A stretch of 64,000 nucleotides of DNA from a virus (IMGVR_UViG_3300037859_000002:47212-111211), one strand, 5' to 3'. Positions 1 through 63,577 are shown, numbered from the stretch's first letter. Translations and numbers: made by a program. The notes: generated by a model not told the origin, from the letters alone.

Positions 1-90
1 GTAGAATCTGCTGGAGTCGGTCGAGGCGAATTTCATGGCCAGCCGCGCGTAGTTGGCGCGGATGATCAGGCGCGGTCGTGGTTCCGGCAT
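1..90 (-). CDS. small array gene, partial (runs off window)
   Basis: ATG at 90 with AAGGAGA RBS just after hammerhead HH1. Confidence 0.6.
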   Translation of the reverse strand, partial: MPEPRPRLIIRANYARLAMKFASTDSSRFY

Positions 91-104
91 GGCCGGTCTC
101 CTTT

Positions 105-167
105 GCGCTTTCGCCCGCCCATGCTGGGGCGGGCTCGTCAGTCCCCGCCACATGGCGGGGCGAGCGC
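105..167 (-). ncRNA. hammerhead ribozyme HH1, type III
   Basis: GCGCUC / stem I CCCCGCC-GGCGGGG / CUGACGA / stem II GCCCGCCC-GGGCGGGC / GAAA GCGC; triplet CUC. Confidence 0.9.
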
Positions 168-186
168 GACCGGGCGCTGGGCCCGG

Positions 187-699
187 TCACCAGTCTTCGG
201 CCAGGCTCTCATAGAGCCGGCCCGCTTCGTCGTATTCATGGACGGCGTGCCATTCGACCATCGCCAGTCGCTGGGGCAGCTCGGCGAATTTGAGATGCTT
301 GGCCCGGTCCGGCCACGAGAGCGTCGACCACCGGGCGGCAAGCCACCGGTCGACCTGCTCGCCCCAGTCCTCGCACAGACAGCCGTAGTTCTCGAGCTGC
401 TCGTGCAGCTCGAGGAGCGTGTCCATCGTGCCGTCCTGGCCCTCGTGGATGGCCAGGATTTCGATCTGTTGATCGATCTGGGGGAGGCCCAGCTCAGCGG
501 CGGTGAAGACCTTGCTGCTCGCGTTGTCGGGCCAGCCGAAGACGGAGAGCAGCATTCCCCAGTCGGCCTGGGCCCTGGGGCCATCGCTCGGGTTCCACCA
601 GCCGACGCCGAGCCAGGCCCCGAAGGGCGCGGGCAGACGGCGGCGGTCGAGCGGCGCGATCGAGCCGATGGCGATGGCGCGCATCATGTCGTTCGACAT
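187..699 (-). CDS. hypothetical protein
   Basis: 170-aa ORF bounded by HH2 and HH1, with RBS. Confidence 0.75.
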   Translation of the reverse strand: MSNDMMRAIAIGSIAPLDRRRLPAPFGAWLGVGWWNPSDGPRAQADWGMLLSVFGWPDNASSKVFTAAELGLPQIDQQIEILAIHEGQDGTMDTLLELHEQLENYGCLCEDWGEQVDRWLAARWSTLSWPDRAKHLKFAELPQRLAMVEWHAVHEYDEAGRLYESLAEDW

Positions 700-708
700 G
701 GTGTGTGT

Positions 709-765
709 TTCCCTTTCGCCGCTACTGGCGGCTCTTCAGGCCCCACACTCTGTGGGGTCGAGGAA
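709..765 (-). ncRNA. hammerhead ribozyme HH2, type III
   Basis: UUCCUC / CCCCACA-UGUGGGG / CUGAAGA / GCCGC-GCGGC / GAAA GGGAA. Confidence 0.9.
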
Positions 766-794
766 GCCCCCGCCACAGGGGCGGGGGCGCAGGT

Positions 795-1220
795 TCAGGC
801 GCGCGACTTGATCGGGATCGTGGTCACCGTGGCCGAACCCTTGTGGTCGACGGCGATGACCTGGATCGGCGGTACCGCGACGGGCCCTTCGTGCCAGGCG
901 ACGAGCGGCGCGAGCTCCTCGAGTGAGGAGCGCGCGTCGGTCCAGTCCTCGGGCGGGTCGTTGCCGACAAGGATGCCGGTGCCGACCAGGGTGCCCGTCG
1001 TCACCGACGGGATCCGGAAGGCCGGGGCCCTGGGGAACTTGAGCAGCCCTTCGTCGTCGACGAGCAGGATGTCCCCGTTGGGGAGCCTGCCGCCGACGCA
1101 GAAGAACCCGTTGAGCGTGGCGCGCGCCCAGCGGCCGAACTCGGCGATCTGGTCGCGCGCGTGGGGTGCCCGCTCTTCGCGGATCTCACGCTTGGCGGGG
1201 TCGATGATCAGGACTCTCAT
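795..1220 (-). CDS. DUF3846-like phage protein
   Basis: MRVLIIDP start after GAGGA RBS; DILLVDDEGLLK and LVGTGILVG motifs (family recalled from memory). Confidence 0.6.
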   Translation of the reverse strand: MRVLIIDPAKREIREERAPHARDQIAEFGRWARATLNGFFCVGGRLPNGDILLVDDEGLLKFPRAPAFRIPSVTTGTLVGTGILVGNDPPEDWTDARSSLEELAPLVAWHEGPVAVPPIQVIAVDHKGSATVTTIPIKSRA

Positions 1221-1229
1221 GTGGGTCGT

Positions 1230-1299
1230 GTTCCTCTTCAGTGCCACCCTGATTGGTGGCAGACCCACCCTGGCGTGGGGCCAGGGTGGTTTCGGATCA
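1230..1299 (-). ncRNA. hammerhead ribozyme HH3, type II
   Basis: UGAUCC GAAA / stem III CACCCUGGC-GCCAGGGUG / GUC / UGCCACC-GGUGGCA / CUGAAGA GGAAC. Confidence 0.9.
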
Positions 1300-1539
1300 G
1301 GCTGGTCGCAGACTGACGACCTTGCCGCCCGAGGTGTTCATGACGCGTCGGGCCAGCAGTTCCTGGCGGCGTTCGTGGGTGAGCCCCGCGAGGGGCAGGG
1401 CCACGATCAGCAGGGCCAGCATTGGCAGCGCCCCGGCCGCGGCCGCGATGGGCACGAGCCTGTCGATGGCGTAGCCGATGGCCAGGCCGATGCCGATTTC
1501 GCCGGCAAAGAGCAGCCGTTCGAGCGTCGGTTCTTCCAT
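1297..1539 (-). CDS. small membrane protein
   Basis: 80 aa with two hydrophobic segments; bounded by HH4 and HH3. Confidence 0.7.
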   Translation of the reverse strand: MEEPTLERLLFAGEIGIGLAIGYAIDRLVPIAAAAGALPMLALLIVALPLAGLTHERRQELLARRVMNTSGGKVVSLRPA

Positions 1540-1545
1540 GGGAGT

Positions 1546-1616
1546 TGATCCTCTTCAGCGCCACCTTGATTGGTGGCCGACGCGCCCCGGCCATGGGCCA
1601 GGGCGGTTTCGGATCA
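1546..1616 (-). ncRNA. hammerhead ribozyme HH4, type II (identical to HH20)
   Basis: UGAUCC GAAA...GUC G GCCACC-GGUGGC G CUGAAGA GGAUCA; perfect 6-bp stem II. Confidence 0.92.
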
Positions 1617-1973
1617 GGCGGGTCGGTCAGGATGGTAGTCGAGCGCGCGCTTCAGCCGTGCGACCAGCGTACGTGGCTTGCTCTCGAGGCCGAACAGCGA
1701 CTCGGACACCTGCTTTGTGATGCCAAAGAACACGGGTCCGATGGACTCGCTGCGGACTTCCTGTTCCCCGACAAAGGGGAACAACATGCGCCCGTCGTCG
1801 AACAGGTGGCGCAGCGTCAGTCCCTCGTTCTGCATCTCGGGCGTCATGGCCGCGTGGCCGATGATGCACCCGGGGCTGCCACAGAAGTCGGTCCAGCGGG
1901 TCATCACCAGCTGATCGGGCGGAATGCTCGCCGCCAGGTCGGTGACGAAGGCCAGCCTCTCGTAGGGTGTCAT
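1614..1973 (-). CDS. CGxxxCIxGH family protein (paralogue 1)
   Basis: CGSPGCIIGH..PEMQNEGL; similar to 2617-2997 and 62482-62865. Confidence 0.75.
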   Translation of the reverse strand: MTPYERLAFVTDLAASIPPDQLVMTRWTDFCGSPGCIIGHAAMTPEMQNEGLTLRHLFDDGRMLFPFVGEQEVRSESIGPVFFGITKQVSESLFGLESKPRTLVARLKRALDYHPDRPA

Positions 1974-1980
1974 GCGCGTG

Positions 1981-2051
1981 GTTCCTCTTCAGGCCCGCGG
2001 GATTGCGGGCAGAGCGGCCCCGCCGCGGTGCGACGGGGTGCTTTCGGATCA
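1981..2051 (-). ncRNA. hammerhead ribozyme HH5, type II
   Basis: UGAUCC GAAA GC...GCUC U GCCCGC-GCGGGC CUGAAGA GGAAC; one extra U after the cleavage triplet. Confidence 0.85.
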
Positions 2052-2252
2052 GTCTTCGGGAGGCGCCCTCACCACGGGATACGGGTAGCCCAGCGCGGTC
2101 ATGACCCGTTCGTGGATCTCGCACGCGTGGTCCCGGTCTTCCTCGTTCCAGGTGGGGCGGCCCTGCCGGCGGCGCCGGCGGTGGGCCGCGTCGGTGCCCG
2201 CCGCGTGGGCGAGCCCGAGGGCCTCCTGGTAGCTGTCAGCGCGGATGGGCAT
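2049..2252 (-). CDS. hypothetical protein
   Basis: short ORF overlapping its upstream gene and ending in HH5; start uncertain. Confidence 0.6.
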   Translation of the reverse strand: MPIRADSYQEALGLAHAAGTDAAHRRRRRQGRPTWNEEDRDHACEIHERVMTALGYPYPVVRAPPED

Positions 2253-2541
2253 CGACGCCCTCGCCGTTGACGGCGTGGCCCACCAGGGTGCCGTAGCGGC
2301 GCCTGGTCGCGTGGGCCATCATGGCCAGGGCTTCGCGCACGCGGCGGGCATCGGCCGCGATCGACAGGAGCTCCGTTTCGGGCACCTGTTCGACCCCCTC
2401 GGGAAAGCGTTGCTGGATCTGCTCGGCGATGTCCTGCACGAGCCTGCAGCAGGCTTTCATCTGGGTGGCCACGGCGTTGCCCGAGGGCATGGAGTCGAGC
2501 GCGAGCGTGAGCCAGTCGTCGGGCAGTTGGTGTTGAGGCAT
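2236..2541 (-). CDS. hypothetical protein
   Basis: 101-aa ORF; RBS lies in HH6. Confidence 0.7.
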   Translation of the reverse strand: MPQHQLPDDWLTLALDSMPSGNAVATQMKACCRLVQDIAEQIQQRFPEGVEQVPETELLSIAADARRVREALAMMAHATRRRYGTLVGHAVNGEGVDAHPR

Positions 2542-2546
2542 CTGGT

Positions 2547-2619
2547 TGATCCTCTTCAGTGCCGGCGATGGTGCCGGCCGAGCGTCCCCGCCGCGATGCG
2601 ACGGGGCGCTTTCGGATCA
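2547..2619 (-). ncRNA. hammerhead ribozyme HH6, type II
   Basis: UGAUCC GAAA GCG..CGCUC G GCCGGC-GCCGGC A CUGAAGA GGAUCA. Confidence 0.92.
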
Positions 2620-2997
2620 GGTTGTGACCGGCTCTTTCAAAAGCCGGTCGATCAGGGCCAGCTGCCGGTCCTTGGTCTGGTGCCGGGGCCGGGCATCATC
2701 GGAATAGAACAGCACGGTCCCGGCGTCGTTGCTGATGCCGAAGAACTCGGACAGGCCGATGTTGCCGACGGGGTTGCCGTTGACGGTCGGCGAAGGCCAG
2801 GGGCCATCGGTCAGCTCCAGGCCCTCGGCCTGGAGGACCGGATCCTGGGCACCGTGGCCCGCGATGCACGCGGTGGTGCCGCACTGTGAAACCCAGGCGC
2901 TCATGTGGATTGCTTGGGCCGGTGTGTTGGCGATGACCTTGCGCAGGCGGGCCAGCCGCTGTCGCGGCGTCAGGCCAACGGGTTCCGGGTCTGTCAT
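2617..2997 (-). CDS. CGxxxCIxGH family protein (paralogue 2)
   Basis: GLTPRQRLARLR..CGTTACIAGHGAQDPVLQAEGL. Confidence 0.8.
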   Translation of the reverse strand: MTDPEPVGLTPRQRLARLRKVIANTPAQAIHMSAWVSQCGTTACIAGHGAQDPVLQAEGLELTDGPWPSPTVNGNPVGNIGLSEFFGISNDAGTVLFYSDDARPRHQTKDRQLALIDRLLKEPVTT

Positions 2998-3003
2998 TGG
3001 TTT

Positions 3004-3073
3004 GCTCCTCTTCAGGCCCGCGGGATTGCGGGCGACCGCCCCGCCCCGGTGTGGGGCGGGGGGTTTCGTCAGC
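3004..3073 (-). ncRNA. hammerhead ribozyme HH7, type II (weak stem II)
   Basis: GCUGAC GAAA CC..GGUC GCCCGC-GCGGGC CUGAAGA GGAGC. Confidence 0.8.
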
Positions 3074-3248
3074 GCGTCGTGGCCGTTTGCTGGGGCGCCA
3101 TGGTGCGGACCAGTCGCTGGCGCAGGGCCTCGACCCTGTTCCAGGCCGTCCAGTCGGTGGCCTGGCTCTGGGTCGCCACCTGCTGACCGTAACTGGTCAG
3201 CGCCGTGATCAGCGTCAGCAGCTCGTCCTCGTCGAGGGCGATGTTCAT
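3069..3248 (-). CDS. hypothetical protein
   Basis: MNIALDEDELL... ORF with ATGA overlap to the upstream gene. Confidence 0.65.
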   Translation of the reverse strand: MNIALDEDELLTLITALTSYGQQVATQSQATDWTAWNRVEALRQRLVRTMAPQQTATTR

Positions 3249-3631
3249 GCGCGGGGCGCCGCCAGGTAGCGTGCGATCCGAACGGCCGACTGCTCGTCCA
3301 GCCAGTCCAGGAGCTGGGCCTTCATCAGGTCCGCCACCGGGCCATCGTTGAGTTCGGGACGCTGCTCGCGCAGGCTTTCGGCCAAGCGGCGCCACGAGCT
3401 GGGCTGCAGGGTCAGGCCCTGCTCAGCGAGCGCGGCGCGAATGTCCGCGGTGCAAAGCAGGACGTGGCCCAGCCGGACCGCGAGTTCCTCGAGCAGGGCC
3501 CGGCCCTCCTCGATGGTGGGCTCGCGACCGAAGGTCGCGCACCAGATGCGCGCGCAGATTTCGGCGATGTCGGCCGCCCGATCGCGGAGCGTGCGCTCGG
3601 GCGCGGCCTCGAAGACGGATTGTTCCTCCAT
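3245..3631 (-). CDS. hypothetical protein
   Basis: MEEQSVF... start after GAGAGGA RBS at the end of HH8. Confidence 0.7.
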   Translation of the reverse strand: MEEQSVFEAAPERTLRDRAADIAEICARIWCATFGREPTIEEGRALLEELAVRLGHVLLCTADIRAALAEQGLTLQPSSWRRLAESLREQRPELNDGPVADLMKAQLLDWLDEQSAVRIARYLAAPRA

Positions 3632-3643
3632 CGGAGTGGGTCC

Positions 3644-3708
3644 TCTCGTTTCGCGCCCACGAACCGGCGGGCGCTCGTCGGCGCCTCTCACATGAGAGGC
3701 GAACGAGA
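3644..3708 (-). ncRNA. hammerhead ribozyme HH8, type III, CCGACGA core variant
   Basis: UCUCGUU / CGCCUCUC-GAGAGGCG / CCGACGA / GCGCCCGC-GUGGGCGC / GAAA CGAGA. Confidence 0.8.
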
Positions 3709-3738
3709 TACACTTAAATGTGGTGAGCCGGGAGTCAA
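3709..3738 (-). promoter_or_regulatory. putative sigma70-type promoter overlapping a CACAT-N4-GTGTA motif
   Basis: TTGACT, 16 nt, TAAGTG; lies between a terminator-like hairpin and HH8. Confidence 0.45.
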
Positions 3739-3777
3739 ATGGAAAGGCCCCCCACCCGGAAAAGGGTAGGGGGCCTT
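3738..3777 (-). terminator. putative intrinsic terminator
   Basis: AAGGCCCCCTACCC-loop-GGGTGGGGGGCCTT followed by TCCATTT. Confidence 0.5.
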
Positions 3778-3788
3778 GCGCGCGAGGG

Positions 3789-3998
3789 TCAGGCGCGGCG
3801 CATCTGGCGCAGACCCTCGCGGGTCGACCTGGCGCCGCCGCAGATGGCCCGATGGGCCACCGCGGCTGCGGCTCTGGTGCGCCGAAGCATCTCCTGCTCG
3901 TCGAGCTTGATCTCGCCGGTCAGGCTGTCCTGCAGGTCCTGCAGGGTATCGCGGGCCGCGGCCAGCGCATCGCGCACATAATCGGGCTGCTTGGGCAT
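3789..3998 (-). CDS. hypothetical protein
   Basis: MPKQPDYVR... with AGGAG RBS. Confidence 0.7.
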   Translation of the reverse strand: MPKQPDYVRDALAAARDTLQDLQDSLTGEIKLDEQEMLRRTRAAAAVAHRAICGGARSTREGLRQMRRA

Positions 3999-4016
3999 GG
4001 TATGTGCTCCTGGCCC

Positions 4017-4117
4017 CGGCTGCCTCTTCGGCACAGGATGGGGGCCCACATCGCTGTGGATGCACGCCGCGGCTCCTTCCTCGCGGGAGGGGCGCGCGCG
4101 CGCATTTCGATCAGCCG
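4017..4117 (-). ncRNA. hammerhead ribozyme HH9, type II, CCGAAGA core variant
   Basis: CGGCUGAUC GAAA UGCGCGC..GCGUGCAUC CACAG..CUGUG CCGAAGA GGCAGCCG; triplet AUC. Confidence 0.75.
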
Positions 4118-4350
4118 CGCTCGGTGCGCGCGGTCCGGCTCGGATCATCCGGATCTGCGGCTTCGAAGGCGCGGTGGTCATAGGTCGTGGTCTCGCCCTG
4201 CTCGAGGTCCCAGTCGACGCCAAACTCATCATCGGCGGCGATCCTGACCGCCTCTTCGACGGTGCGGGCCATGACGATGCCCGTGTGACAGAGACACTGG
4301 TCGACATAGCGGTGGACCACGAATTCTCGCTCCGGTGGGTCGGCGCTCAT
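4111..4350 (-). CDS. hypothetical acidic protein
   Basis: 79-aa ORF; GGGAGG RBS in HH10. Confidence 0.7.
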   Translation of the reverse strand: MSADPPEREFVVHRYVDQCLCHTGIVMARTVEEAVRIAADDEFGVDWDLEQGETTTYDHRAFEAADPDDPSRTARTERG

Positions 4351-4362
4351 GCGCGCGTTCCT

Positions 4363-4418
4363 CCCTTTCGCCGGCGGCTGGCCGGCTCGTCAGCCCCCAC
4401 CAGGTGGTGGGGAAAGGG
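4363..4418 (-). ncRNA. hammerhead ribozyme HH10, type III
   Basis: CCCUU / UCCCCACC-GGUGGGGG / CUGACGA / GCCGGC-GCCGGC / GAAA GGG. Confidence 0.9.
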
Positions 4419-4442
4419 GCCGCCCCCCGCAGGGGGCGGTCG

Positions 4443-4685
4443 TCAGTCCCGTCGGTCGATCCAGTAGCGCGGCACCCGATGATCGGGTGGGAAGCCGAAG
4501 CTCCCATCCTGCTCGAGGGTGACCACGATGGTCTCGGGGGTCTCGATCGCGACGGTGTCGACCACGACGAGCTCGAACTGGAATGTCGTGTTCGTGCTGT
4601 CGGCGTCGGCGTAGCGGTCGCCCGCGAGGTCGATGACCGACCCCGGTGTGAGGTCGGCCACCCGAACCATTTCGGGCGCGATCAT
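4443..4685 (-). CDS. hypothetical protein
   Basis: MIAPEMVRVADL..., ATGA overlap with upstream gene. Confidence 0.65.
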   Translation of the reverse strand: MIAPEMVRVADLTPGSVIDLAGDRYADADSTNTTFQFELVVVDTVAIETPETIVVTLEQDGSFGFPPDHRVPRYWIDRRD

Positions 4686-4942
4686 CCTGTGCGATCCCAT
4701 CCTCCGGGATGGCCAGGACGTGGGGTGATCATCGTCACCCTGGGGCGTCGGCGCCGCCACTCGTGCAGCGCCAGCAGCCCGTAGAAGGTCGTGGCCGCGG
4801 CGCCTGTCGTCAGCGCCGCGGCCCACATGATCTGCTGCACCGTCGGGTCGTCCTCGAAGATGAGGAACACGCCGGTCGCGGCAAAGATCACGCCGGCGAC
4901 TCCGCTGATGCCCAGCAGGGCAAAGCCGAGAAGTCGGTACAT
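4682..4942 (-). CDS. small membrane protein
   Basis: two hydrophobic helices and a basic tail. Confidence 0.7.
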   Translation of the reverse strand: MYRLLGFALLGISGVAGVIFAATGVFLIFEDDPTVQQIMWAAALTTGAAATTFYGLLALHEWRRRRPRVTMITPRPGHPGGWDRTG

Positions 4943-4950
4943 GGGTCGTT

Positions 4951-5008
4951 CCCTTTCGCCGGCATGCTGGCCGGCTCATCAGTCCGCCCCATCAGGGAGC
5001 GGAAAGGG
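4951..5008 (-). ncRNA. hammerhead ribozyme HH11, type III
   Basis: CCCUU / UCCGC.CCC-GGGGCGGA / CUGAUGA / GCCGGC-GCCGGC / GAAA GGG. Confidence 0.92.
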
Positions 5009-5058
5009 CGACGCGCCCGCCCCAGCCTTGGGGCCAGAGCGGGCGCGCGTCGTTGGTT

Positions 5059-5286
5059 TCAGGCCGCCAGGGCTTCGTCAGAGGGCGGGGTCGCCCTGCT
5101 GGACTTGCGCCACTCGTAGACCGCACCTGCCACGCAGGTGACGGCCATCAGGGCGTTGACCGCGATGTTGAGGCCCGGTACCAACATGGTGCCCGCGCGC
5201 ATCATCGGGAGCCAGGCAATGGCCAGGCCGGTGAAGCCCACCGCCGAAGCGGCGTAGATGCGGGCGTTCATTTTGTTGCTGGTCAT
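5059..5286 (-). CDS. small membrane protein
   Basis: MTSNKMNAR..., two hydrophobic helices. Confidence 0.7.
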   Translation of the reverse strand: MTSNKMNARIYAASAVGFTGLAIAWLPMMRAGTMLVPGLNIAVNALMAVTCVAGAVYEWRKSSRATPPSDEALAA

Positions 5287-5295
5287 GATGTGTTC

Positions 5296-5350
5296 CCCTT
5301 TCGCCGCAGACTGGCGGCTCATCAGGCCCCACACGCTGTGGGGTCGAGGG
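5296..5350 (-). ncRNA. hammerhead ribozyme HH12, type III
   Basis: CCCUC / CCCCACA-UGUGGGG / CUGAUGA / GCCGC-GCGGC / GAAA GGG. Confidence 0.92.
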
Positions 5351-5386
5351 TGGGTGCCCCCACACAGGGGGCACCCAACAGGAAGA

Positions 5387-5614
5387 TCACGCGGCCTGCT
5401 CCAGGGCCTTGTCCTGGGGCTTGCCCAGGTAGCGGGCCGCCACGTTGGCGCCCACGGCGACAACGACGCCCCCGACCGCGATGGCGCCCAAAACGGGCGC
5501 CGTCATCGGAACCAGCGGCAGCAGCAGCACCGCCAACCGGTAGCCCGCCAGACCAGAGGTCAGCAGGCCCGCGGTCTCGGCCACGGCAGCGATCTTCTTC
5601 GTGTTGAAGGTCAT
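5387..5614 (-). CDS. small membrane protein
   Basis: MTFNTKK... with AGGAG RBS and a hydrophobic core. Confidence 0.7.
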   Translation of the reverse strand: MTFNTKKIAAVAETAGLLTSGLAGYRLAVLLLPLVPMTAPVLGAIAVGGVVVAVGANVAARYLGKPQDKALEQAA

Positions 5615-5626
5615 CGGATCGATCTC

Positions 5627-5703
5627 CTGAGTGATGATGCGTTCGCCCCTTGCCAAAGGGGCCTCGTCAGCCGGGCTCATTGGCTACCCGGTCGCACACT
5701 CAG
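5627..5703 (-). ncRNA. hammerhead-like RNA HH13, type III, non-canonical core
   Basis: UGCGA / CCGGG-CCCGG / CUGACGA G / GCCCCUU-AAGGGGC / GAAC GCA; the A15.1-U16.1 pair is replaced by C-G. Confidence 0.6.
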
Positions 5704-5711
5704 AATCGTCG

Positions 5712-5760
5712 TTGACATACCGTATGTGGTGATTCTCCACATATATTCAACCACTTAGGC
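5712..5760. promoter_or_regulatory. divergent promoter/operator region
   Basis: AT-rich; TTGACA (+) and TTGAAT (-); inverted repeat TATGTGG-N7-CCACATA at 5723-5743; lies between divergent modules. Confidence 0.55.
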
Positions 5761-5802
5761 GCAGAAAAGCTCCGAAAATGCACCGAAAATGGTCGATCCC
5801 AC

Positions 5803-6645
5803 ATGCCTAAGGGCCACCCGCCCTCCATCTGGGCCAGCATCCGCGCCGACTATGTCGCAGGCCTGGGCACGACCAACGACCTGGCCCGAACCTATGGCGT
5901 CGACGCCTCGGGCATCCGCAAGCGCCGCATCCTCGAGGCCTGGCCCGAACCGGGCGAACGCATCGTAGACACCGCCCTCTACAGGACCAAATCCAAGCAG
6001 GGTGTGAAACCCGCAGATCAAGCCCCGCGCTCGCCAAAGCAGCAGGCCGGAACACATTTCACACCCGAGGGTGTGAAACCCATGGAACACCCTGGAACAC
6101 CCCCCCGGACGGGCGTGCTCCAGAAGCCCCGAACGCGAGAGCAGGCGCTGCTCATGGCCGCCGAACGCGAGTTCGTCCGAGACCTCGCCATCATCGACGC
6201 CATCGCCCCCAAGGCGGCAGCCCTCATCGAAGACCACCTGGCCCGGACCGCCCAGCTCAAGCAGCACTTCACCCGGCTCCACACCCTCCTGGGCAACCTC
6301 ATCCACGACGACCCCCAGAAGCGCGCGACCGCACAGGACGTGCTCGGCCAGGTGCCGCCCGAAACGGTGCTGAACACGATGCTCAACCTGGCCTCGTCGA
6401 TCCAGCGGCTCGAGCGCCAGTCGCTGCAGCTCGACATGGGGCCCCGGCGCCTCGAGCTCACCGGCAAGGACGGGGCGCCGCTGCCCGCCACCCAGGTCAA
6501 CGTCGGTGTGGGCGTGAAGCTCGACGCCAAGACCATGACGACCGAGCAGCTGGCCGCCCTGGGCTCGGTCCTGGAGGCCGTGGACGGCCAGGCGCCGCGC
6601 ACGGCGCTGAAGCGTCCGCCCCAGGGGCCGATGATTGAGGGCTGA
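5803..6645 (+). CDS. terminase small subunit-like protein
   Basis: N-terminal HTH (WASIRADYVAG..LARTYGV..IRKR), C-terminal ELTGKDGAPL motif, upstream of TerL. Confidence 0.65.
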   Translation: MPKGHPPSIWASIRADYVAGLGTTNDLARTYGVDASGIRKRRILEAWPEPGERIVDTALYRTKSKQGVKPADQAPRSPKQQAGTHFTPEGVKPMEHPGTPPRTGVLQKPRTREQALLMAAEREFVRDLAIIDAIAPKAAALIEDHLARTAQLKQHFTRLHTLLGNLIHDDPQKRATAQDVLGQVPPETVLNTMLNLASSIQRLERQSLQLDMGPRRLELTGKDGAPLPATQVNVGVGVKLDAKTMTTEQLAALGSVLEAVDGQAPRTALKRPPQGPMIEG

Positions 6646-6649
6646 GCAG

Positions 6650-7390
6650 CGCCGGCCTTTCTTCGTGCGTCGGGCCCGTGGTAGAACGCGCGTCGCTACT
6701 GCCGAGGTCACGCTCGGCGTGAGTCCTGCGATGGCCTGGCCAGATCGGGCGGGGCGCTCCCCGCGGACATCGAGCACAGGGCGAACGGTGGAAGTAACGC
6801 CCCTCCAGTAGCCACTTGCACGGCACATCGAAGTGTGAGATACGGTGCGGGCTGCTTGGCGATCAGGCCCGTTACTTTGGAAACTGTAGGTCGTCCGTTC
6901 AAATCGGACCAGCGGTCGCAAGGCTGCTGTAGCTCAGCCTGGTAGAGCAACGGTATGAAACGGACCGCCCTAAATTCCGGCGGCAACTGCTAACCCATCC
7001 GGCCAGGGGTTGTGGCCGGGGACCGAGATGAGTGCCCCGCGAGGGGAGCCAAGCCCCCACAGGGGGCCGCCCGGTTGATCACCGGGCGCTCGGAGGAATT
7101 CAGTTCTGCGGTGGCCGGTACGAAGCGCGAGCAAAGAACCTCGTCGCCCCACGGGCAACCTTACAGTAGGGGCTGGCTACGCCCGGCACACGCAAGTGGG
7201 ATGCCGGCAACGTCGCAAAGCCAGTTCGGCCGCCCGGGACGCCGGGGCGCTCGGCCGACGTGTTGGCCATCGCAGAAGCCAGCTGATTTGGGGTGGTGTT
7301 CTCGGCCCGCATTTCGTGGGCCAAAGCCTTGATAAAACGAGCGTATGTGCTGGTGCCCTTGAGCTGGTCTGGCCATCGCGGAAGCCTTCG
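6650..7390 (+). ncRNA. large structured ncRNA candidate (possibly GOLLD-like)
   Basis: ~740 nt without a credible ORF; many hairpins with GNRA-type loops; internal 17-nt repeat; abuts tRNA-Met; ends approximate. Confidence 0.45.
6883..6954 (+). ncRNA. circularly permuted tRNA-like domain
   Basis: order is anticodon-stem 3' strand, variable loop, T arm, acceptor stem capped by GCAA, D arm, anticodon-stem 5' strand. Confidence 0.75.
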
Positions 7391-32009: not shown

Positions 32010-32739
32010 GGATTTTTCGGTCTCGGTCGCCCGCTGGTGCGAAAAGGCCAAGGGCAGGGCCGACGAGGCCTTCCGCGGTATCGCCCAGGCGGCCCTGGTG
32101 CGGGTGCAGCAGCTCACGCCCGTCGATACGGGCTACCTGCGCGCCAACTGGGTCGCCATGAAGGAAGGTGACCCGGTGCCCAAGGCGGCGCCCCGATCCG
32201 CTCCGGGAGGCATCGCCAGCACCATCGGCGGCGCCGGCGGCGGCATCGCCGGCAAGGCCGTGGCCGTGCGCGCTCTGGGCGGTGCCCTGGGCCCGGTGGG
32301 CAGCATCGGTGGCGCCATCGTTGGCACCGTGGGAGGGCAGGTCGCCGAGGGTGGTGAGATCAACGTCGCCGGCGCCCTGGGCTCGGCCGCGGGCACCGCG
32401 GTCGGCGCCACCCTGGGATCGGCGGTGCCAATCGCGGGCACCATCATCGGCGGCGCCGTCGGTGGCGTCGTCGGCGGCATCGCTGGCGAAGCCCTGGCCA
32501 CGGCCGTTTCCAGTCCTGATGGCGGGCGCGGCGGCGGCATCGCCAGCGCCAGGGTGGGCGACAAGATCATCCTGCTGAACCCCGTGGCCTACGCCAGGCG
32601 CATTGAATACGGCTTCGTCGGCCAGGACAGCCTGGGCCGGCGCTTCAACCAGCCGGGGCGCGGCATGGCCCAGCAGACCATGGCCGAGATCCCATCGATC
32701 GCCGAGCGCGTGCTCGCCGACATGAAGGGCCAGGGATGA
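32002..32739 (+). CDS. HK97 gp10-like neck protein with glycine-zipper insertion
   Basis: TPVDTGYLRANW and NPVAYARRIEYG motifs. Confidence 0.8.
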   Translation: MAEDFSVSVARWCEKAKGRADEAFRGIAQAALVRVQQLTPVDTGYLRANWVAMKEGDPVPKAAPRSAPGGIASTIGGAGGGIAGKAVAVRALGGALGPVGSIGGAIVGTVGGQVAEGGEINVAGALGSAAGTAVGATLGSAVPIAGTIIGGAVGGVVGGIAGEALATAVSSPDGGRGGGIASARVGDKIILLNPVAYARRIEYGFVGQDSLGRRFNQPGRGMAQQTMAEIPSIAERVLADMKGQG

Positions 32740-59231: not shown

Positions 59232-59786
59232 TCAGGAGCTGCTGTTGATCGCGGCATTGCACAGCACATTGGCGATGGTCGGCGCCGTATGTTCGGTCCG
59301 GACGGTCGGCTCTCCCGGGTGCCATGAGCCGGGGCGGCTGATCCGATAACGGTGATTGTGAACCACCAGGGTCGGAACATGCACCATATCCGGGTGGGGC
59401 TCTTCGACGAGCGTGTCGAAAACCCAGCTGTCGCCAATGTACCGCGCAACCAGCAGACGTCCCACCCTGTCTGGTAAGATCGCCCTGGCGCCAATGGCGA
59501 CGGGATGTAACAGGTCGAAACCTCCGTTCCACCCGTATCGCAGCGCCTCGTTGATCAAGAGCAGTCCGCTGATGATCCATTCTGCATCGTCGTGGTCCCA
59601 CGGTGTGGGCGCTTGCCACGGCTGATCGATGAGCCGCGCGACCACCGCTTGAGTTTCCTCGAAGCGATGGCGTCGGGCGTTATCCATGCCTGGAGCATGC
59701 CCGCGTCTGGCGGCCATTTCACTGTGGATATGGGCATCGAGGTCGAGCAGGCGCTTCGTCAGCAGGATGACGGGCTCTGTGTTCAT
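59232..59786 (-). CDS. hypothetical protein
   Basis: MNTEPVILL... after GAGGAG RBS. Confidence 0.7.
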   Translation of the reverse strand: MNTEPVILLTKRLLDLDAHIHSEMAARRGHAPGMDNARRHRFEETQAVVARLIDQPWQAPTPWDHDDAEWIISGLLLINEALRYGWNGGFDLLHPVAIGARAILPDRVGRLLVARYIGDSWVFDTLVEEPHPDMVHVPTLVVHNHRYRISRPGSWHPGEPTVRTEHTAPTIANVLCNAAINSSS

Positions 59787-59792
59787 CGGTTT

Positions 59793-59858
59793 CTCCTCAG
59801 CGCCGGTCGATGATGGCCGGCAGAGCCGCACCGGGATCTTCCCGGTGGGCTTTCGTCA
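59793..59858 (-). ncRNA. hammerhead ribozyme HH14, type II (stem II reduced to ~1 bp)
   Basis: UGAC GAAA GCC..GGCUC UGCCGG-CCGGCG CUGAGGA G. Confidence 0.7.
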
Positions 59859-60206
59859 TTCCTTCAGGGGCAGCACGCCGAGTTGCTTCAAAGACTCATA
59901 GGTCGCAAGCCCCCGCGTTGAGCCGTACATGGTCAGGCCCATGGCATCGAGTTTCTCGACGATGGCAAGCACGTGCTGGGCGGCCATCTGTTCTCCCAAT
60001 TTTTTTGTGCTGACGTGGAGCGAGTGCTGCGCGACTCTTTGCCACACGGTGTCACCTGTGTGATCGGTGGGAAAATAGCGCCAACCCTCGCAGACGGTTC
60101 TCAGGGTTTCCTGATCGGCTGCGGCGCGTGGGACCTGGACAGACCAGGTGCCGGAAAAGGGTTCGAAACTGACGTAGTAGGCTCGACTTAGATCAAGTAC
60201 TGTCAT
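59856..60206 (-). CDS. hypothetical protein
   Basis: MTVLDLSR... after GAGGAG RBS. Confidence 0.7.
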   Translation of the reverse strand: MTVLDLSRAYYVSFEPFSGTWSVQVPRAAADQETLRTVCEGWRYFPTDHTGDTVWQRVAQHSLHVSTKKLGEQMAAQHVLAIVEKLDAMGLTMYGSTRGLATYESLKQLGVLPLKE

Positions 60207-60214
60207 CGGATAGC

Positions 60215-60283
60215 TCCTCTTCATGGGGATGATTCCCCGACCGTTCCCCCTGAGTCAAAGCTCAGGGGGCCGGTTTCGGATCA
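60215..60283 (-). ncRNA. hammerhead-like RNA HH15, type II, AUGAAGA core variant
   Basis: UGAUCC GAAA CCG..CGGUC GGGGA-UCCCC AUGAAGA GGA. Confidence 0.7.
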
Positions 60284-60793
60284 GTCGAGGCAGTGGCCGC
60301 GCACGCGATCATAGACCTCGCCCGTGTCCTGTCTGAGCATGTCTCCATACTCGAGCAGGGCCAGGCACGCGGGCGCGCTCGACTGGCGCAGGATATAGAT
60401 CCGGCTCCGGGGGTCGGAGCCGTTCCAGAAATCCTGGCACTGGAGGTGCTCGCGCTCGGTGTAGTCGGGCTCATCGAGCACCGGGTAGTCGTGGTAGCGC
60501 TCCACGATCGCGTCGGCCCGTTCCAGCAGCTCATGGGCGTCGGCCTTGATCATGATGACCTCGACCCAACCGCACAGCGCGTGCGTGCAGTGGGTGACGA
60601 CCACGCCGTCGCTCTCGCCTCCGATGGCGCTGAGTGCGGCATCGAAGTTGGAGAGCTCGAGCGGGCCGCTGTCGCGGTTGCGACCGAAGAAGCGGTACCA
60701 GCCGTCCCATTGGGTGCCCACGTAACGGGCGGGCCACTCCTGGTCATAATCCTCCCAGCGCTGCAGGTGCAGCGGCGTGTAGGGGTCGTCCAT
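60281..60793 (-). CDS. phage hypothetical protein
   Basis: MDDPYTPLH..., RDS..LELSNF, GWVE, DYPVLDE. Confidence 0.75.
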   Translation of the reverse strand: MDDPYTPLHLQRWEDYDQEWPARYVGTQWDGWYRFFGRNRDSGPLELSNFDAALSAIGGESDGVVVTHCTHALCGWVEVIMIKADAHELLERADAIVERYHDYPVLDEPDYTEREHLQCQDFWNGSDPRSRIYILRQSSAPACLALLEYGDMLRQDTGEVYDRVRGHCLD

Positions 60794-60799
60794 TGTGGT

Positions 60800-60870
60800 T
60801 GACCTCGTCAGCGCCGGCGATGGTGCCGGCCGAGCGTCCCCGCCGCGATGCGACGGGGCGCTTTCGGTCA
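60800..60870 (-). ncRNA. hammerhead ribozyme HH16, type II (near copy of HH6)
   Basis: UGACC GAAA...CUC G GCCGGC-GCCGGC G CUGACGA GGUCA; compensatory one-pair indel in stem II relative to HH6. Confidence 0.92.
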
Positions 60871-61263
60871 GGCGGACACGGGCACCGGGCCGGTGATCCA
60901 TTCGCTCTCGTCGTGACGGATCACGATCGACTGGTGCCGGTCGTTGTAGACCACCGGGGCCTGCATGCCTGCGTCGGCCCAGCTTCGGAGCCGATTACCG
61001 TTTTCGACGGCGAAGGCCCAGGCGACTGCCGCAGGATCGTCGGACTGGTAGTAGGCCCGGACCTCGTAGTAGGTGCCGAACTCGTGCGGGTTGCCGCGGA
61101 TCTTCATGGTCAGGCCCACGGGCGGCGCGCCATAGACGCGCTCGATGGCCAGCATGAAGGCGCGGCATTCCAGGCGATTGCAATCGCCTGCGTTCTCGGT
61201 GATGCCGGTGGCGGCGCCCTCCTCATACGAAGGACCGCTCCCGAAGTCGGTGAAGGTGGACAT
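60868..61263 (-). CDS. phage hypothetical protein
   Basis: MSTFTDFGSGP..., NPHEFGTYYEV. Confidence 0.75.
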   Translation of the reverse strand: MSTFTDFGSGPSYEEGAATGITENAGDCNRLECRAFMLAIERVYGAPPVGLTMKIRGNPHEFGTYYEVRAYYQSDDPAAVAWAFAVENGNRLRSWADAGMQAPVVYNDRHQSIVIRHDESEWITGPVPVSA

Positions 61264-61268
61264 GTGGT

Positions 61269-61339
61269 TGACTTCTTCAGGCCGGCGACGATGCCGGCAG
61301 ACACGCCCTGCCCGACGATGGGCAGGGGTGTTTCGGTCA
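61269..61339 (-). ncRNA. hammerhead ribozyme HH17, type II
   Basis: UGACC GAAA CAC..GUGUC U GCCGGC-GCCGGC CUGAAGA AGUCA. Confidence 0.8.
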
Positions 61340-61612
61340 GGCTGATTTCGGGATCGAGCCGGGTGCCGCCAGCACGAAGCCATGAACATAGGCTCGATCG
61401 CACTGGCCGACGACTTCGGTGATCGCGTCGTCGCTCATGGAGGACTCAGGTTCCTTCATGAACTCGCCCTCTGGCAGGTAGTTGGAGCAAATGGCCACCG
61501 CTTCGCGCACGGCGACTTCCCAGTCGCTGTCGAGCAGGAACCAGGCAAAGGCCTCGGTGTGGTCGACGCCTTTGCCGAGCGGCTGAGTCTGCAATCCGAA
61601 GATCCAGCTCAT
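61337..61612 (-). CDS. hypothetical protein
   Basis: 91-aa ORF between HH18 and HH17. Confidence 0.7.
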   Translation of the reverse strand: MSWIFGLQTQPLGKGVDHTEAFAWFLLDSDWEVAVREAVAICSNYLPEGEFMKEPESSMSDDAITEVVGQCDRAYVHGFVLAAPGSIPKSA

Positions 61613-61618
61613 GGCTTT

Positions 61619-61673
61619 CCCTTTCGCCGGCGTGCTGGCCGGCTCTTCAGCCCCGCCGATGGGCGGGGAAGGG
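61619..61673 (-). ncRNA. hammerhead ribozyme HH18, type III
   Basis: CCCUU / CCCCGCC-GGCGGGG / CUGAAGA / GCCGGC-GCCGGC / GAAA GGG. Confidence 0.92.
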
Positions 61674-61682
61674 CGCCCGCGG

Positions 61683-61916
61683 CTACGGGGCGGGCGGCAG
61701 GACGCGGATGGTTTCGCCCGTCGTCTGCGATGAGCAGGCGAAGCTCGCGCCCCTGGACTGGGTTTGGTAAATCAGCCGCCGCGTGGCTTCGCCAGCGGTC
61801 TGGCATGCCTCCAATGAGGCATAGACCGCGGTCATGACCGTCGGCGGAACCGTCGGTGGATTGGCAACCACGCCCGGGCTGCTCCAGATCCAGAATATCA
61901 GCACCCATCCGGACAT
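61683..61916 (-). CDS. small hypothetical protein
   Basis: GGAGG RBS; hydrophobic N-terminus; SLEACQ...FACS. Confidence 0.65.
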   Translation of the reverse strand: MSGWVLIFWIWSSPGVVANPPTVPPTVMTAVYASLEACQTAGEATRRLIYQTQSRGASFACSSQTTGETIRVLPPAP

Positions 61917-61961
61917 GCTTGGCCCTCCCCCTGTGAGGGGTCGCAGCCTATCAGAGCCGGG

Positions 61962-62027
61962 TGTCGCTCGTCAGTGCCCATTGGGCAGACGCACCGCCCG
62001 GACAACCCGGACGGGCGTTTCGGATCA
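61962..62027 (-). ncRNA. hammerhead ribozyme HH19, type II (irregular stem II)
   Basis: UGAUCC GAAA CGC..GCGUC UGCCC-GGGCA CUGACGA GCGACA. Confidence 0.8.
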
Positions 62028-62408
62028 GGGACTGTTCGGCTCATAGGTCAGGCTGGGCTTCACGTTCTTGACGTGGAGCACGCCGTGGCCATCGGTGCGG
62101 CCCAGAAATTCATAGGCGCGATCCGCCAGCTTCTGGATCTCGGCGGCCTGATGGCCGAAGGCAAGGGCCTGCATGTAGATCGCGACCAGGCCGCGGTTGC
62201 TGCCCCCCAGCGCGAATGGTTCGGGAGAGACCTCCCCGATCCAGATTTCGGTGGAGAGGCGGCGGATGTTCAGATCGAAGCTGCCATCTGGGTTTTCCCA
62301 GAGCGCGGCGCGGTAGTGCCTGTGCACGGCCTCCTTCAGGATGTGCTGGTTGATTTTCTCGGGCGTGGCATCGCGAATGAGCTGGAACAGTTCGAAAGCT
62401 GTGCTCAT
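62025..62408 (-). CDS. hypothetical protein
   Basis: MSTAFELFQL... after HH20. Confidence 0.7.
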   Translation of the reverse strand: MSTAFELFQLIRDATPEKINQHILKEAVHRHYRAALWENPDGSFDLNIRRLSTEIWIGEVSPEPFALGGSNRGLVAIYMQALAFGHQAAEIQKLADRAYEFLGRTDGHGVLHVKNVKPSLTYEPNSP

Positions 62409-62413
62409 CAGGT

Positions 62414-62484
62414 TGATCCTCTTCAGCGCCACCTTGATTGGTGGCCGACGCGCCCCGGCCATGGGCCAGGGCGGTTTCGGATCA
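62414..62484 (-). ncRNA. hammerhead ribozyme HH20, type II (identical to HH4)
   Basis: same 71 nt as 1546-1616. Confidence 0.92.
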
Positions 62485-62865
62485 GGCTTCGACACGCTCT
62501 TCCAGGAGCTGGTCCATCAGGGCCAGCTGCCGAGCCTTGGTTTCTTCCCCTGCCGGAGCAATGAGGTCGTAAAACAAAGCAGTCACCATCCTGGGATCAT
62601 TGATACCGAAGAACTTGGCCAGTTCCTGCGGTCTGTTGTGGAACAGCCCATGGATGCTGAGGCTCCCCGTGAGCGGCAATAGATTCAGTCCCTCGGCCTG
62701 GAGGACGGGATCCATGGCACCGTGTCCTGCGATGCACGCGGTGGTGCCGCACACGGACCTCCATTTGGCCATCTCGATCGTCTCGGCCGGGGTATCGGCG
62801 ATGACCTCGCGGAGGCGGGCGAGCCGCTGCCGCGGGGTCAGGCCGACGCGTTTTTGGAACTTCAT
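62482..62865 (-). CDS. CGxxxCIxGH family protein (paralogue 3)
   Basis: GLTPRQRLARLR..CGTTACIAGHGAMDPVLQAEGL. Confidence 0.8.
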   Translation of the reverse strand: MKFQKRVGLTPRQRLARLREVIADTPAETIEMAKWRSVCGTTACIAGHGAMDPVLQAEGLNLLPLTGSLSIHGLFHNRPQELAKFFGINDPRMVTALFYDLIAPAGEETKARQLALMDQLLEERVEA

Positions 62866-62873
62866 CGGATAGC

Positions 62874-62942
62874 TCCTCTTCATGGGGATGATTCCCCGAC
62901 CGCTCCCCCCGAGTCAAAACCCAGGGGGGCGGTTTCGGATCA
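62874..62942 (-). ncRNA. hammerhead-like RNA HH21, type II, AUGAAGA core variant
   Basis: near copy of HH15. Confidence 0.7.
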
Positions 62943-63269
62943 GAAATCTGGGCTCTCGCCCAGGTCGTCGCGGTCCATGCCGTCGACGCGGTCGGCCTTG
63001 GCCTTCCGCGCGTTCAGTTCATCCCGATTGCGCGGGTTGAACTGGCTGCGACGCCAAGCCGCCCGGGCGAGCTTGCGATCGAAGAACACGCGATCGCGCT
63101 TGATCACCGTGGTTCTTGCGGACCACTTGTTCTTGATCCCCTGGGTGAGGATGTTGATGTGCTCCTCGCCGTTGCTGCCCAGCGCCAGGCCTAGCTTGGT
63201 GCCGCCCGGGGCGAGGTACCAGATCTTGGTTTCTGCGTAGAGGCGATAGTCATCGGCGGTGATGATCAT
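62940..63269 (-). CDS. hypothetical protein
   Basis: 109-aa ORF with ATGA overlap. Confidence 0.7.
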   Translation of the reverse strand: MIITADDYRLYAETKIWYLAPGGTKLGLALGSNGEEHINILTQGIKNKWSARTTVIKRDRVFFDRKLARAAWRRSQFNPRNRDELNARKAKADRVDGMDRDDLGESPDF

Positions 63270-63469
63270 TGACCGACCCCTTTCTCAGCCGAGGCGGGGA
63301 TGATCATCACGCACTCGAGGTGCTTGCCCCGGTCGAACAGATCGATCTGGATACCCTTGCTGGCGCGGGCGGCGCGCGCGAGGGAGGCCCTCGCAGCATC
63401 CAGGTTGCGATGCCGAGACAGGACGTTCCCTCCTCGGACGACGCTCAAAGGATACTGGTTCGTGTACAT
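63266..63469 (-). CDS. hypothetical protein
   Basis: 67-aa ORF after HH22. Confidence 0.7.
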   Translation of the reverse strand: MYTNQYPLSVVRGGNVLSRHRNLDAARASLARAARASKGIQIDLFDRGKHLECVMIIPASAEKGVGQ

Positions 63470-63477
63470 GGGGTGTT

Positions 63478-63535
63478 TCCCTTTCGCCGGCGTCTGGCCG
63501 GCTCGTCAGGCCCCACGCGGTGTGGGGTCGAGGGA
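63478..63535 (-). ncRNA. hammerhead ribozyme HH22, type III (related to HH2)
   Basis: UCCCUC / CCCCAC-GUGGGG / CUGACGA / GCCGGC-GCCGGC / GAAA GGGA. Confidence 0.92.
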
Positions 63536-63577
63536 GCCCCCGCCACAGGGGCGGGGGCGCAGGTTCAGAAGATGCGG

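Follow-up and report, generated by a model that had tools for sequence, protein, structure and literature searches.

Predicted hammerhead ribozymes with a built-in Shine-Dalgarno sequence at the gene junctions of a phage genome

Here we describe a phage genome in which the ends of predicted hammerhead ribozymes coincide with the signals that stop and start translation. On sequence evidence, the element at positions 1546-1616, on the minus strand, is a genuine hammerhead ribozyme of type II, and the 111-kb genome has at least 29 hammerheads in all. Its predicted cleavage site lies within a gap that the ribozyme occupies entirely, from the stop codon of one gene to the Shine-Dalgarno (SD) sequence of the next. 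Such an overlap between SD and ribozyme is seen in 25 of 29 copies on the contig and in 17 of the 22 copies in the window, by which we mean the whole 64,000-nucleotide stretch analysed. The explanation we lean towards is that the ribozymes process transcripts and have the SD incorporated in them, and that the unmasking of the SD by their predicted cleavage would be brief and modest.

What bacterial and phage hammerheads do has been debated ever since their discovery in 2011, and a 2019 review still called their role undefined (PMC6765202). A helix closed by a stop codon and an SD makes the question simply testable, and the present genome offers a rich natural test set, with at least 29 copies, two topologies that place the SD in the open helix, and variants with a weak helix or an external SD. 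It also provides an internal control, namely a bias at core position N7 that appears only where N7 falls in the SD. If cleavage gates translation, the arrays would be the natural equivalent of ribozyme switches and insulators that have been engineered; otherwise they would represent extreme dual coding in a compact phage operon.

The genome is that of a phage, with terminase, portal, head and tail genes on the plus strand, and derives from an IMG/VR provirus record estimated to be 93% complete. Among the sequencing runs listed, one algae metagenome, probably the source sample, contains this DNA, and no RNA run does. No DNA relatives were found in a phage collection by blastn with positions 1-6000 or by megablast with positions 20000-44000, and no function could be assigned to ten array proteins from Pfam or PHROGs. 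Five paralogues of 119-127 aa, belonging to no known family and sharing the motif CG..C..GH, are each encoded directly after a hammerhead. A single-sequence search with a paralogous array protein found no relatives, and a profile built from the five sequences found one distant viral locus (L002), which is without a hammerhead. A Y RNA-like element (YrlA) was matched at 6865-6970 on the plus strand with 34.6 bits, below its gathering score.

Hammerhead copies and the evidence for their identity

Copies were sought with a pattern combining the core and GAAA, followed by reading of every other junction by eye. The window holds 22 hammerhead-like folds, 13 of type II and nine of type III, all on the minus strand and all at gene junctions (Table 1). 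At least seven further copies lie elsewhere on the same 111-kb contig, at 32.4-37.7 kb, which brings the contig-wide count to at least 29. A strict scan found no type I hammerhead, in agreement with the first-pass annotation of this DNA.

Table 1. Positions of the hammerhead copies, of the parts of the target copy and of associated features (window coordinates unless stated otherwise)
Feature	Position	Strand	Remarks
Left array, 13 hammerheads	105-5699	(-)	
Type III	105-167	(-)	SD outside ribozyme; core at 141
Type III	710-765	(-)	junction 739
Type II	1229-1299	(-)	left array
Type II (target)	1546-1616	(-)	whole stop-to-SD/start gap occupied
Target: stem II 5' strand UGAUCC	1611-1616	(-)	UGA 1616-1614 = stop codon of gene 1973-1614
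Target: GAAA and stem III hairpin	1580-1610	(-)	GAAA 1610-1607; stem III 1607-1580, 12-bp hairpin with one bulge
Target: C17	1579	(-)	read from GUC followed by stem I; predicted cut 1579/1578
Target: stem I hairpin	1559-1578	(-)	6 bp, loop AAUCAA; G-G mismatch at 1.1-2.1
Target: catalytic core CUGAAGA	1552-1558	(-)	C3 to A9, N7 = A
Target: stem II 3' strand GGAUCA	1546-1551	(-)	open helix; pairs with UGAUCC
Target: SD AGAGGA	1549-1554	(-)	core A7-G8-A9 and stem II G10.1-G10.2-A10.3; 9 nt before AUG
Downstream gene of target	1297-1539	(-)	80 aa, hydrophobic, without family match; AUG 1539-1537
Type II	1981-2050	(-)	left array
Type II	2547-2619	(-)	left array
Type II	3003-3073	(-)	copy 3015; SD mostly in core, poor open helix
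Type III	3644-3708	(-)	core CCGACGA
Type II	4019-4114	(-)	copy 4031; core CCGAAGA; SD outside ribozyme
Type III	4363-4418	(-)	junction 4393
Type III	4951-5008	(-)	junction 4982
Type III	5296-5350	(-)	junction 5325
Type III-like, GAAC	5637-5699	(-)	copy 5670; SD outside ribozyme
Right array, 9 hammerheads	59788-63535	(-)	
Type II	59788-59860	(-)	copy 59800; SD mostly in core, poor open helix
Type II	60213-60282	(-)	core AUGAAGA
Type II	60800-60870	(-)	right array
Type II	61269-61339	(-)	copy 61280; no convincing SD
Type III	61619-61673	(-)	right array
Type II	61962-62027	(-)	copy 61974; SD outside ribozyme
Type II	62414-62484	(-)	identical to 1546-1616
Type II	62872-62941	(-)	core AUGAAGA
Type III	63478-63535	(-)	junction 63509
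GC hairpins preceding type III copies, examples	63536-63560, 5352-5376		
CG..C..GH paralogues	1614-1973, 2617-2997, 62482-62865; in locus L001: 2826-3194, 4658-5032		
Loop I/start-codon complementarity	59784-59823, 60791-60832, 2539-2580, 62406-62447, 60204-60239, 62863-62898		

A hammerhead core consists of C3 U4 G5 A6 N7 G8 A9, G12 A13 A14, an A15.1-U16.1 pair, and H17 at the cleavage site. The canonical core is present in 17 of the 22 window copies, and each of the other five departs from it at a single point (AUGAAGA in two, CCGANGA in two, GAAC in one). The core motif was matched 14 times against 1.4 expected, a count reached in none of 100 shuffles, and stems I, II and III could be parsed for every copy. 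Pairs of the open helix were counted in a fixed register from the invariant core, leaving no alignment freedom; this register was preferred to a MAFFT alignment of the type II copies, in which stem III was aligned too unevenly for pairs to be counted. In the register set by the core, 85 of 108 type II cells and 49 of 55 type III cells are paired, as against 15-43 and 20-27, respectively, when the register is slid. When partners were permuted among the distinct versions of the helix, none of 5000 permutations for type II and one of 5000 for type III reached the observed pairing. Two copies, at 2547-2619 and 60800-60870, illustrate the pattern: their stems I and III are identical, and UGAUCC/GGAUCA in stem II of the former becomes UGACC/GGUCA in the latter with pairing preserved, a difference that reads as a compensatory double deletion of one base per strand.

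Covariance models gave weak scores. Rfam RF02276 matches the target at 1542-1614 with 19 bits, its best score in the window is 31 bits (1225-1297), and every Rfam match falls under the gathering score of 37; the type III copies had no Rfam match, even when a 1-kb stretch was searched with E values of up to 10 allowed. Because the type II matches are weak and the type III copies have none, the identification leans on motif enrichment, parsed helices and covariation. In energy-based folding the unconstrained minimum-energy structure contains the open helix in 7 of 29 copies, and the hammerhead fold lies 0-2.6 kcal/mol above the minimum in 17 of 29 (0.8 kcal/mol for the target); the hammerhead fold is predicted to be competitive with the minimum-energy structure.

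Contig-wide, folds with kept stems carry the non-consensus cores AUGAAGA (three copies), CCGANGA (three), CAGAGGA (one) and GUGAUCA (one), and these could be slow or tuned ribozymes. The GUGAUCA core, at contig position 32470 (locus L001, G000:C1:31000-38500), has the C3-G8 pair swapped to G3-C8 and a stem II of GUGGAG/CUCCAC.

The target is identical over its 71 nt to the copy at 62414-62484, while the neighbouring genes differ or are distant paralogues, which suggests that the junctions were recently copied or recombined and that hammerheads form the borders of cassettes. The same identity despite different flanking genes could be expected if the copies were inactive, decayed modules derived from hammerheads, for example recombination sites for the shuffling of cassettes, in which the SD-like tract is an ordinary SD. 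Several copies with a non-consensus core or a weak stem II would suit this explanation, as would Rfam scores that are all below threshold, but the catalytic positions are kept in more than 20 copies while the stems covary, and the swap at contig position 32470 maintains the known C3-G8 pair. Comparable prophage arrays, moreover, cleave in vitro (PMC3088659). We therefore regard decay as very improbable.

The target has the topology of a type II hammerhead in which stem II is the open helix, and CUGAAGA, GAAA, the A-U pair and GUC are all present in its core. The pair adjoining the core at 10.1-11.1 is G-C, and at 1.1-2.1 there is a G-G mismatch; the screen of Perreault et al. 2011 required both of these core-adjacent pairs, and the exceptions to it that occurred in a prophage context were often tested (PMC3088659). 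A scan for a pseudoknot between loop I and the 3' tail of the target found complementarity of just 2 nt at best. Given the G-G mismatch and the absence of a detectable loop I pseudoknot, cleavage of this copy is possibly slow, and masking of its SD would then be weightier than we assume below.

The Shine-Dalgarno sequence as part of the ribozyme

At the target, AGAGGA forms the best anti-SD duplex upstream of the AUG at 1539-1537 (-5.8 kcal/mol with ACCUCCUUA). Its GGA base-pairs with the UCC that adjoins the upstream stop codon, and six bases separate GGAUCA (1551-1546) from the AUG at 1539. The first-pass annotation had read the type II ribosome binding site as the end of the core plus the 3' strand of stem II, a description that is exact here (AGAGGA, 1554-1549). 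It had also placed the binding-site strand in the open helix in both topologies, and at least 3 nt of the SD do lie in the 3' strand of that helix in 15 of the 22 window copies. In type II and type III alike, the geometry makes this the sole helix that joins the 5' and 3' products, as had been proposed. Across copies the spacing from SD to AUG is 4-10 nt, and an SD duplex at least as stable as -5.3 kcal/mol precedes 27 of 29 downstream genes, compared with 22% of random positions.

The arrangement varies among copies. In four of the 22 window copies (141, 4031, 5670 and 61974) the SD lies downstream of the ribozyme; three of these had been named earlier as exceptions (HH1, HH9 and HH19, with cores at 141, 4031 and 61974) and all three stand, the copy at 5670 being a fourth that the earlier list omitted. 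Two or three copies are nearly without an open helix. Copies with a stronger SD (GGAGC) have a mismatch at the fourth pair of stem II, so that SD strength is gained at the expense of the helix. The gene that follows the hammerhead at 61962-62027 has a strong SD of its own, GGGGGAGGG, placed in a local hairpin with CCCCUC (61914-61945, minus strand). The predicted cost of opening this SD is 11.6-13.3 kcal/mol, and in this folding model its masking is independent of the ribozyme.

For comparison, two samples of viral contigs were drawn by patterns that fix nothing on the SD side of the ribozyme. The first covers the common type II subfamily and contains about 100 distinct sequences. The start codon in this general viral sample follows A9 by a median of 24 nt (IQR 19-34.5) and has a separate SD; SD and ribozyme overlap in 8 of 93, stem II usually measures 2-4 bp, and GGA occupies 10.1-10.3 in 1 of 108. 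An upstream stop codon set against stem II is common in this sample also. The form found here is more compact, with the start 7-14 nt after A9, a stem II of 5-6 bp, and the SD in core and stem II.

The contig's 18 type II copies differ from the general sample as follows. GG is found at 10.1-10.2 in 13 of 18 as against 23 of 108, and stem II reaches at least 5 bp in 9 of 18 as against 3 of 100. The start codon follows A9 at a distance of at most 14 nt in 16 of 18 as against 9 of 93 (P = 3e-11), and N7, which here falls inside the SD, is a purine in 13 of 18 as against 8 of 100 (P = 2e-8) and as against 2 of 11 in the phage's own type III copies, whose core is far from the SD (P = 0.008); the copies being paralogues, these Fisher P values overstate independence, although the direction is consistent. 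The pattern suggests that the SD shapes the sequence of the ribozyme at N7, at 10.1-10.2 and in the length of stem II, and to judge from these biases the overlap looks like selected dual coding.

The second sample consisted of viral hammerheads that have the GCCG...CGGC stem II of this phage; 63 of the sequences parsed as type I and 24 as type III, and 12 could not be parsed. Within the type III group, about five of 24 hold the SD inside stem III, including those at loci L220, where CUCCUUGU pairs with ACAAGGAG, and L231. The exact family pattern, UGAUCC-GAAA ... CUGANGA-GGAUC, had no match in viral contigs. The idea that hammerheads of type II or type III generally mask the SD was rejected, as masking occurs in about 9% and about 20% of the respective viral samples. 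To judge from these samples, an SD within the ribozyme is sporadic in other phages and systematic in this one, which carries a compact variant.

Transcript processing and access to the Shine-Dalgarno sequence

Under the processing explanation, long transcripts covering small accessory genes would be cut by the ribozymes into insulated messages of one gene each, with protected ends. At its 5' end such a message would have a 5'-OH followed by a hairpin, namely stem I after a type II copy and stems I and II after a type III copy. At its 3' end would be a hairpin followed by a 2',3'-cyclic phosphate; the hairpin is stem III before a type II cut, a role that stem III cannot play in type III copies, where an extra GC hairpin would serve. 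Processing of this kind may affect the stability of the messages as well as their translation. A GC-rich hairpin without a U tract does lie directly 5' of stem III at the junctions 141, 739, 4393, 4982, 5325 and 63509; it would become the 3' end of the upstream product, as an equivalent of type II stem III. Junctions free of hammerheads had been proposed to be overlapping gene pairs, and the only such junction in the fully read stretch of the right array, an overlapping ATGA stop/start at 63266-63269 on the minus strand, fits that proposal. The hammerheads at 5637-5699 and 3644-3708 stand at the heads of transcription units, where they would be able only to trim a short leader. Around the second of them, the minus strand at 3700-3770 carries a terminator-like hairpin (3766-3748) and then a TTGACT box, with the type III hammerhead a few bases further on; a sigma-70 scan of 3550-5850 found no promoter and did not confirm the box as a promoter element.

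With the stop codon of the upstream gene on one strand of the open helix and the SD of the next gene on the other, folding of the ribozyme and contact with the ribosome would be mutually exclusive. The 3' product retains stem I in type II, or stems I and II in type III, and the open helix alone links the two products. As a helix of 4-6 bp cannot hold two separate molecules together, cleavage would free the SD strand irreversibly, and cutting followed by loss of the 5' fragment would leave the SD permanently free.

Control could also run in the opposite direction, with a ribosome at the UGA or a 30S subunit on the SD blocking the open helix, so that translation gates the ribozyme and ribosome-free junctions are the ones mainly cut. 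Both strands of the open helix are indeed translation signals, and viral type II hammerheads often have a stop codon set against the 5' strand of stem II. The helix could nevertheless form within milliseconds between ribosomes, and cleavage is irreversible after departure of the fragment, so that ribosomes could impose a delay only; we consider such gating quite improbable.

The first-pass annotation took the opposite view, that cleavage unmasks the SD as in engineered ribozyme ON-switches. The topology agrees with this, but no consistent gain in SD access appears on unconstrained folding, nor any aptamer or sensor domain. In unconstrained ViennaRNA ensembles the median cost of opening the SD is 4.6 kcal/mol in the precursor and 3.9 kcal/mol in the 3' product, with a median change of 0.2 kcal/mol, and some 3' products are predicted to re-pair the SD locally with the first codons, for example the copy at 2547-2619. 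The gain in SD access linked to cleavage looks small in these ensembles and inconsistent between copies, and masking may be underestimated, because nearest-neighbour folding ignores the tertiary structure of the core. Aptamer or sensor domains were not seen: the closed stems are plain GC-rich hairpins of 13-46 nt, and no riboswitch or aptamer family matched in the arrays. With no such domain, masking would persist no longer than the half-time of cleavage.

A one-shot translational ON-switch, in which the uncleaved fold blocks the 30S subunit, cleavage and release are required, and the speed of the ribozyme sets timing or level, would account for the presence of the SD in the sole product-joining helix of both topologies. 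It would also account for a helix longer than that of ordinary type II hammerheads and for the skew of N7 and 10.1-10.3 towards SD-like bases, and the recurrent AUGAAGA and CCGANGA cores in well-kept folds could tune its rate. Yet the helix is weaker where the SD is stronger, it is almost missing from two or three copies, and in four the SD lies outside. Engineered hammerheads with a masked SD turn translation on in E. coli (PMC5367253), which makes SD unmasking physically plausible in bacteria, and at L220 and L231 of other phages stem III is stretched to 8-9 bp and covers a complete AAGGAG or GGAG. Most viral hammerheads, however, have a separate SD, and masking is thus not needed for the function of an array; in the present copies, the lack of a consistent gain in SD access after cleavage and the re-pairing of some SDs with the first codons argue against a switch. 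So does the position of the upstream stop codon, since it lies inside the partner strand of the SD, where ribosomes terminating at the UGA would open the helix without any cutting. The one-shot switch strikes us as doubtful, and we do not think that the copies are regulated ON-switches; in view of the folding results, the SD overlap probably imposes a brief, modest delay on translation or couples it to processing.

That each accessory gene stays silent until its own ribozyme cuts, with core and helix variants setting gene-specific delays or levels, is in our opinion unlikely. If it were true, the kinetics of cleavage would constitute a programme for early gene expression, and a phage RtcB-type ligase might reseal the junctions and re-mask the SDs. 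The genome does encode an RtcB-family RNA ligase (L234, G000:C1:1-1407, plus strand; 90 bits, above the Pfam cut-off). RtcB ligates 2',3'-cyclic phosphate to 5'-OH ends, which are the ends left by hammerhead cleavage, and religation or circularisation of messages is conceivable because these ends match.

Loop I and the region of the start codon are complementary over 4-6 nt in 6 of the 16 compact type II copies, as in the copy at 59800, where UCAUCG faces CGAUGA. Complementarity of at least 4 bp was found in 1.7 copies on average with shuffled loops (P about 0.003, uncorrected for paralogy). This pairing may be the loop I/3'-tail pseudoknot of type II hammerheads relocated to the AUG, and it would remain inside the 3' product after cleavage.

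Relation to known ribozyme systems

In full-text literature searches we found no description of a natural phage hammerhead that contains the SD of the next gene. RiboJ insulators, synthetic elements ascribed to Lou et al. 2012, reportedly cleave themselves to give a defined 5'-OH, followed by a hairpin and the SD, whatever lies upstream. Their SD is outside the ribozyme, whereas here it is part of it. Classical type II hammerheads of the RF02276 family share with the present copies the core, the topology with an open stem II, and the upstream stop codon beside stem II. They have a stem II of 2-4 bp, a pseudoknot tail and a separate SD, with the start a median of 24 nt after A9, whereas the compact form combines a stem II of 5-6 bp with an internal SD, scores below the gathering score and, at the target, no clear pseudoknot. 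One copy in the window, at 4019-4114, keeps the classical layout; its loop I and tail are complementary over 5 nt by scan and over 6 bp by eye (GGCCCC/GGGGCC).

Engineered aptazymes and thermozymes (PMC5367253, PMC12192606) also have the SD paired inside the ribozyme, and there cleavage frees the SD and permits translation. Their cleavage is controlled by an aptamer or a thermosensor and their stems are extended, whereas the phage copies show no visible sensor and a helix of 4-6 bp. The published idea closest to this one concerns fungal and plant RNA viruses, in which self-cleaving ribozymes are needed for the initiation of translation (PMC13725137), and cleavage of a ribozyme in a viral UTR is likewise tied to translation of the downstream reading frame. 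That system differs in being eukaryotic and cap-independent, with type I hammerheads in 5' UTRs and no masking of an SD.

Arrays of hammerheads flanking prophage genes have been published and cleaved in vitro (Perreault et al. 2011, PMC3088659). They resemble the present arrays in that several hammerheads of types II and III lie on the coding strand among small phage genes, most of them unknown, and in the proposal that polycistronic RNA is processed into gene-length messages. A term search of the main text of that paper returned no occurrence of 'Shine-Dalgarno' or 'translation'. What sets the present genome apart from the Perreault arrays is the number of copies, at least 29 in a single genome, and the fusion of the ribozyme ends to the stop codon of one gene and the SD of the next.
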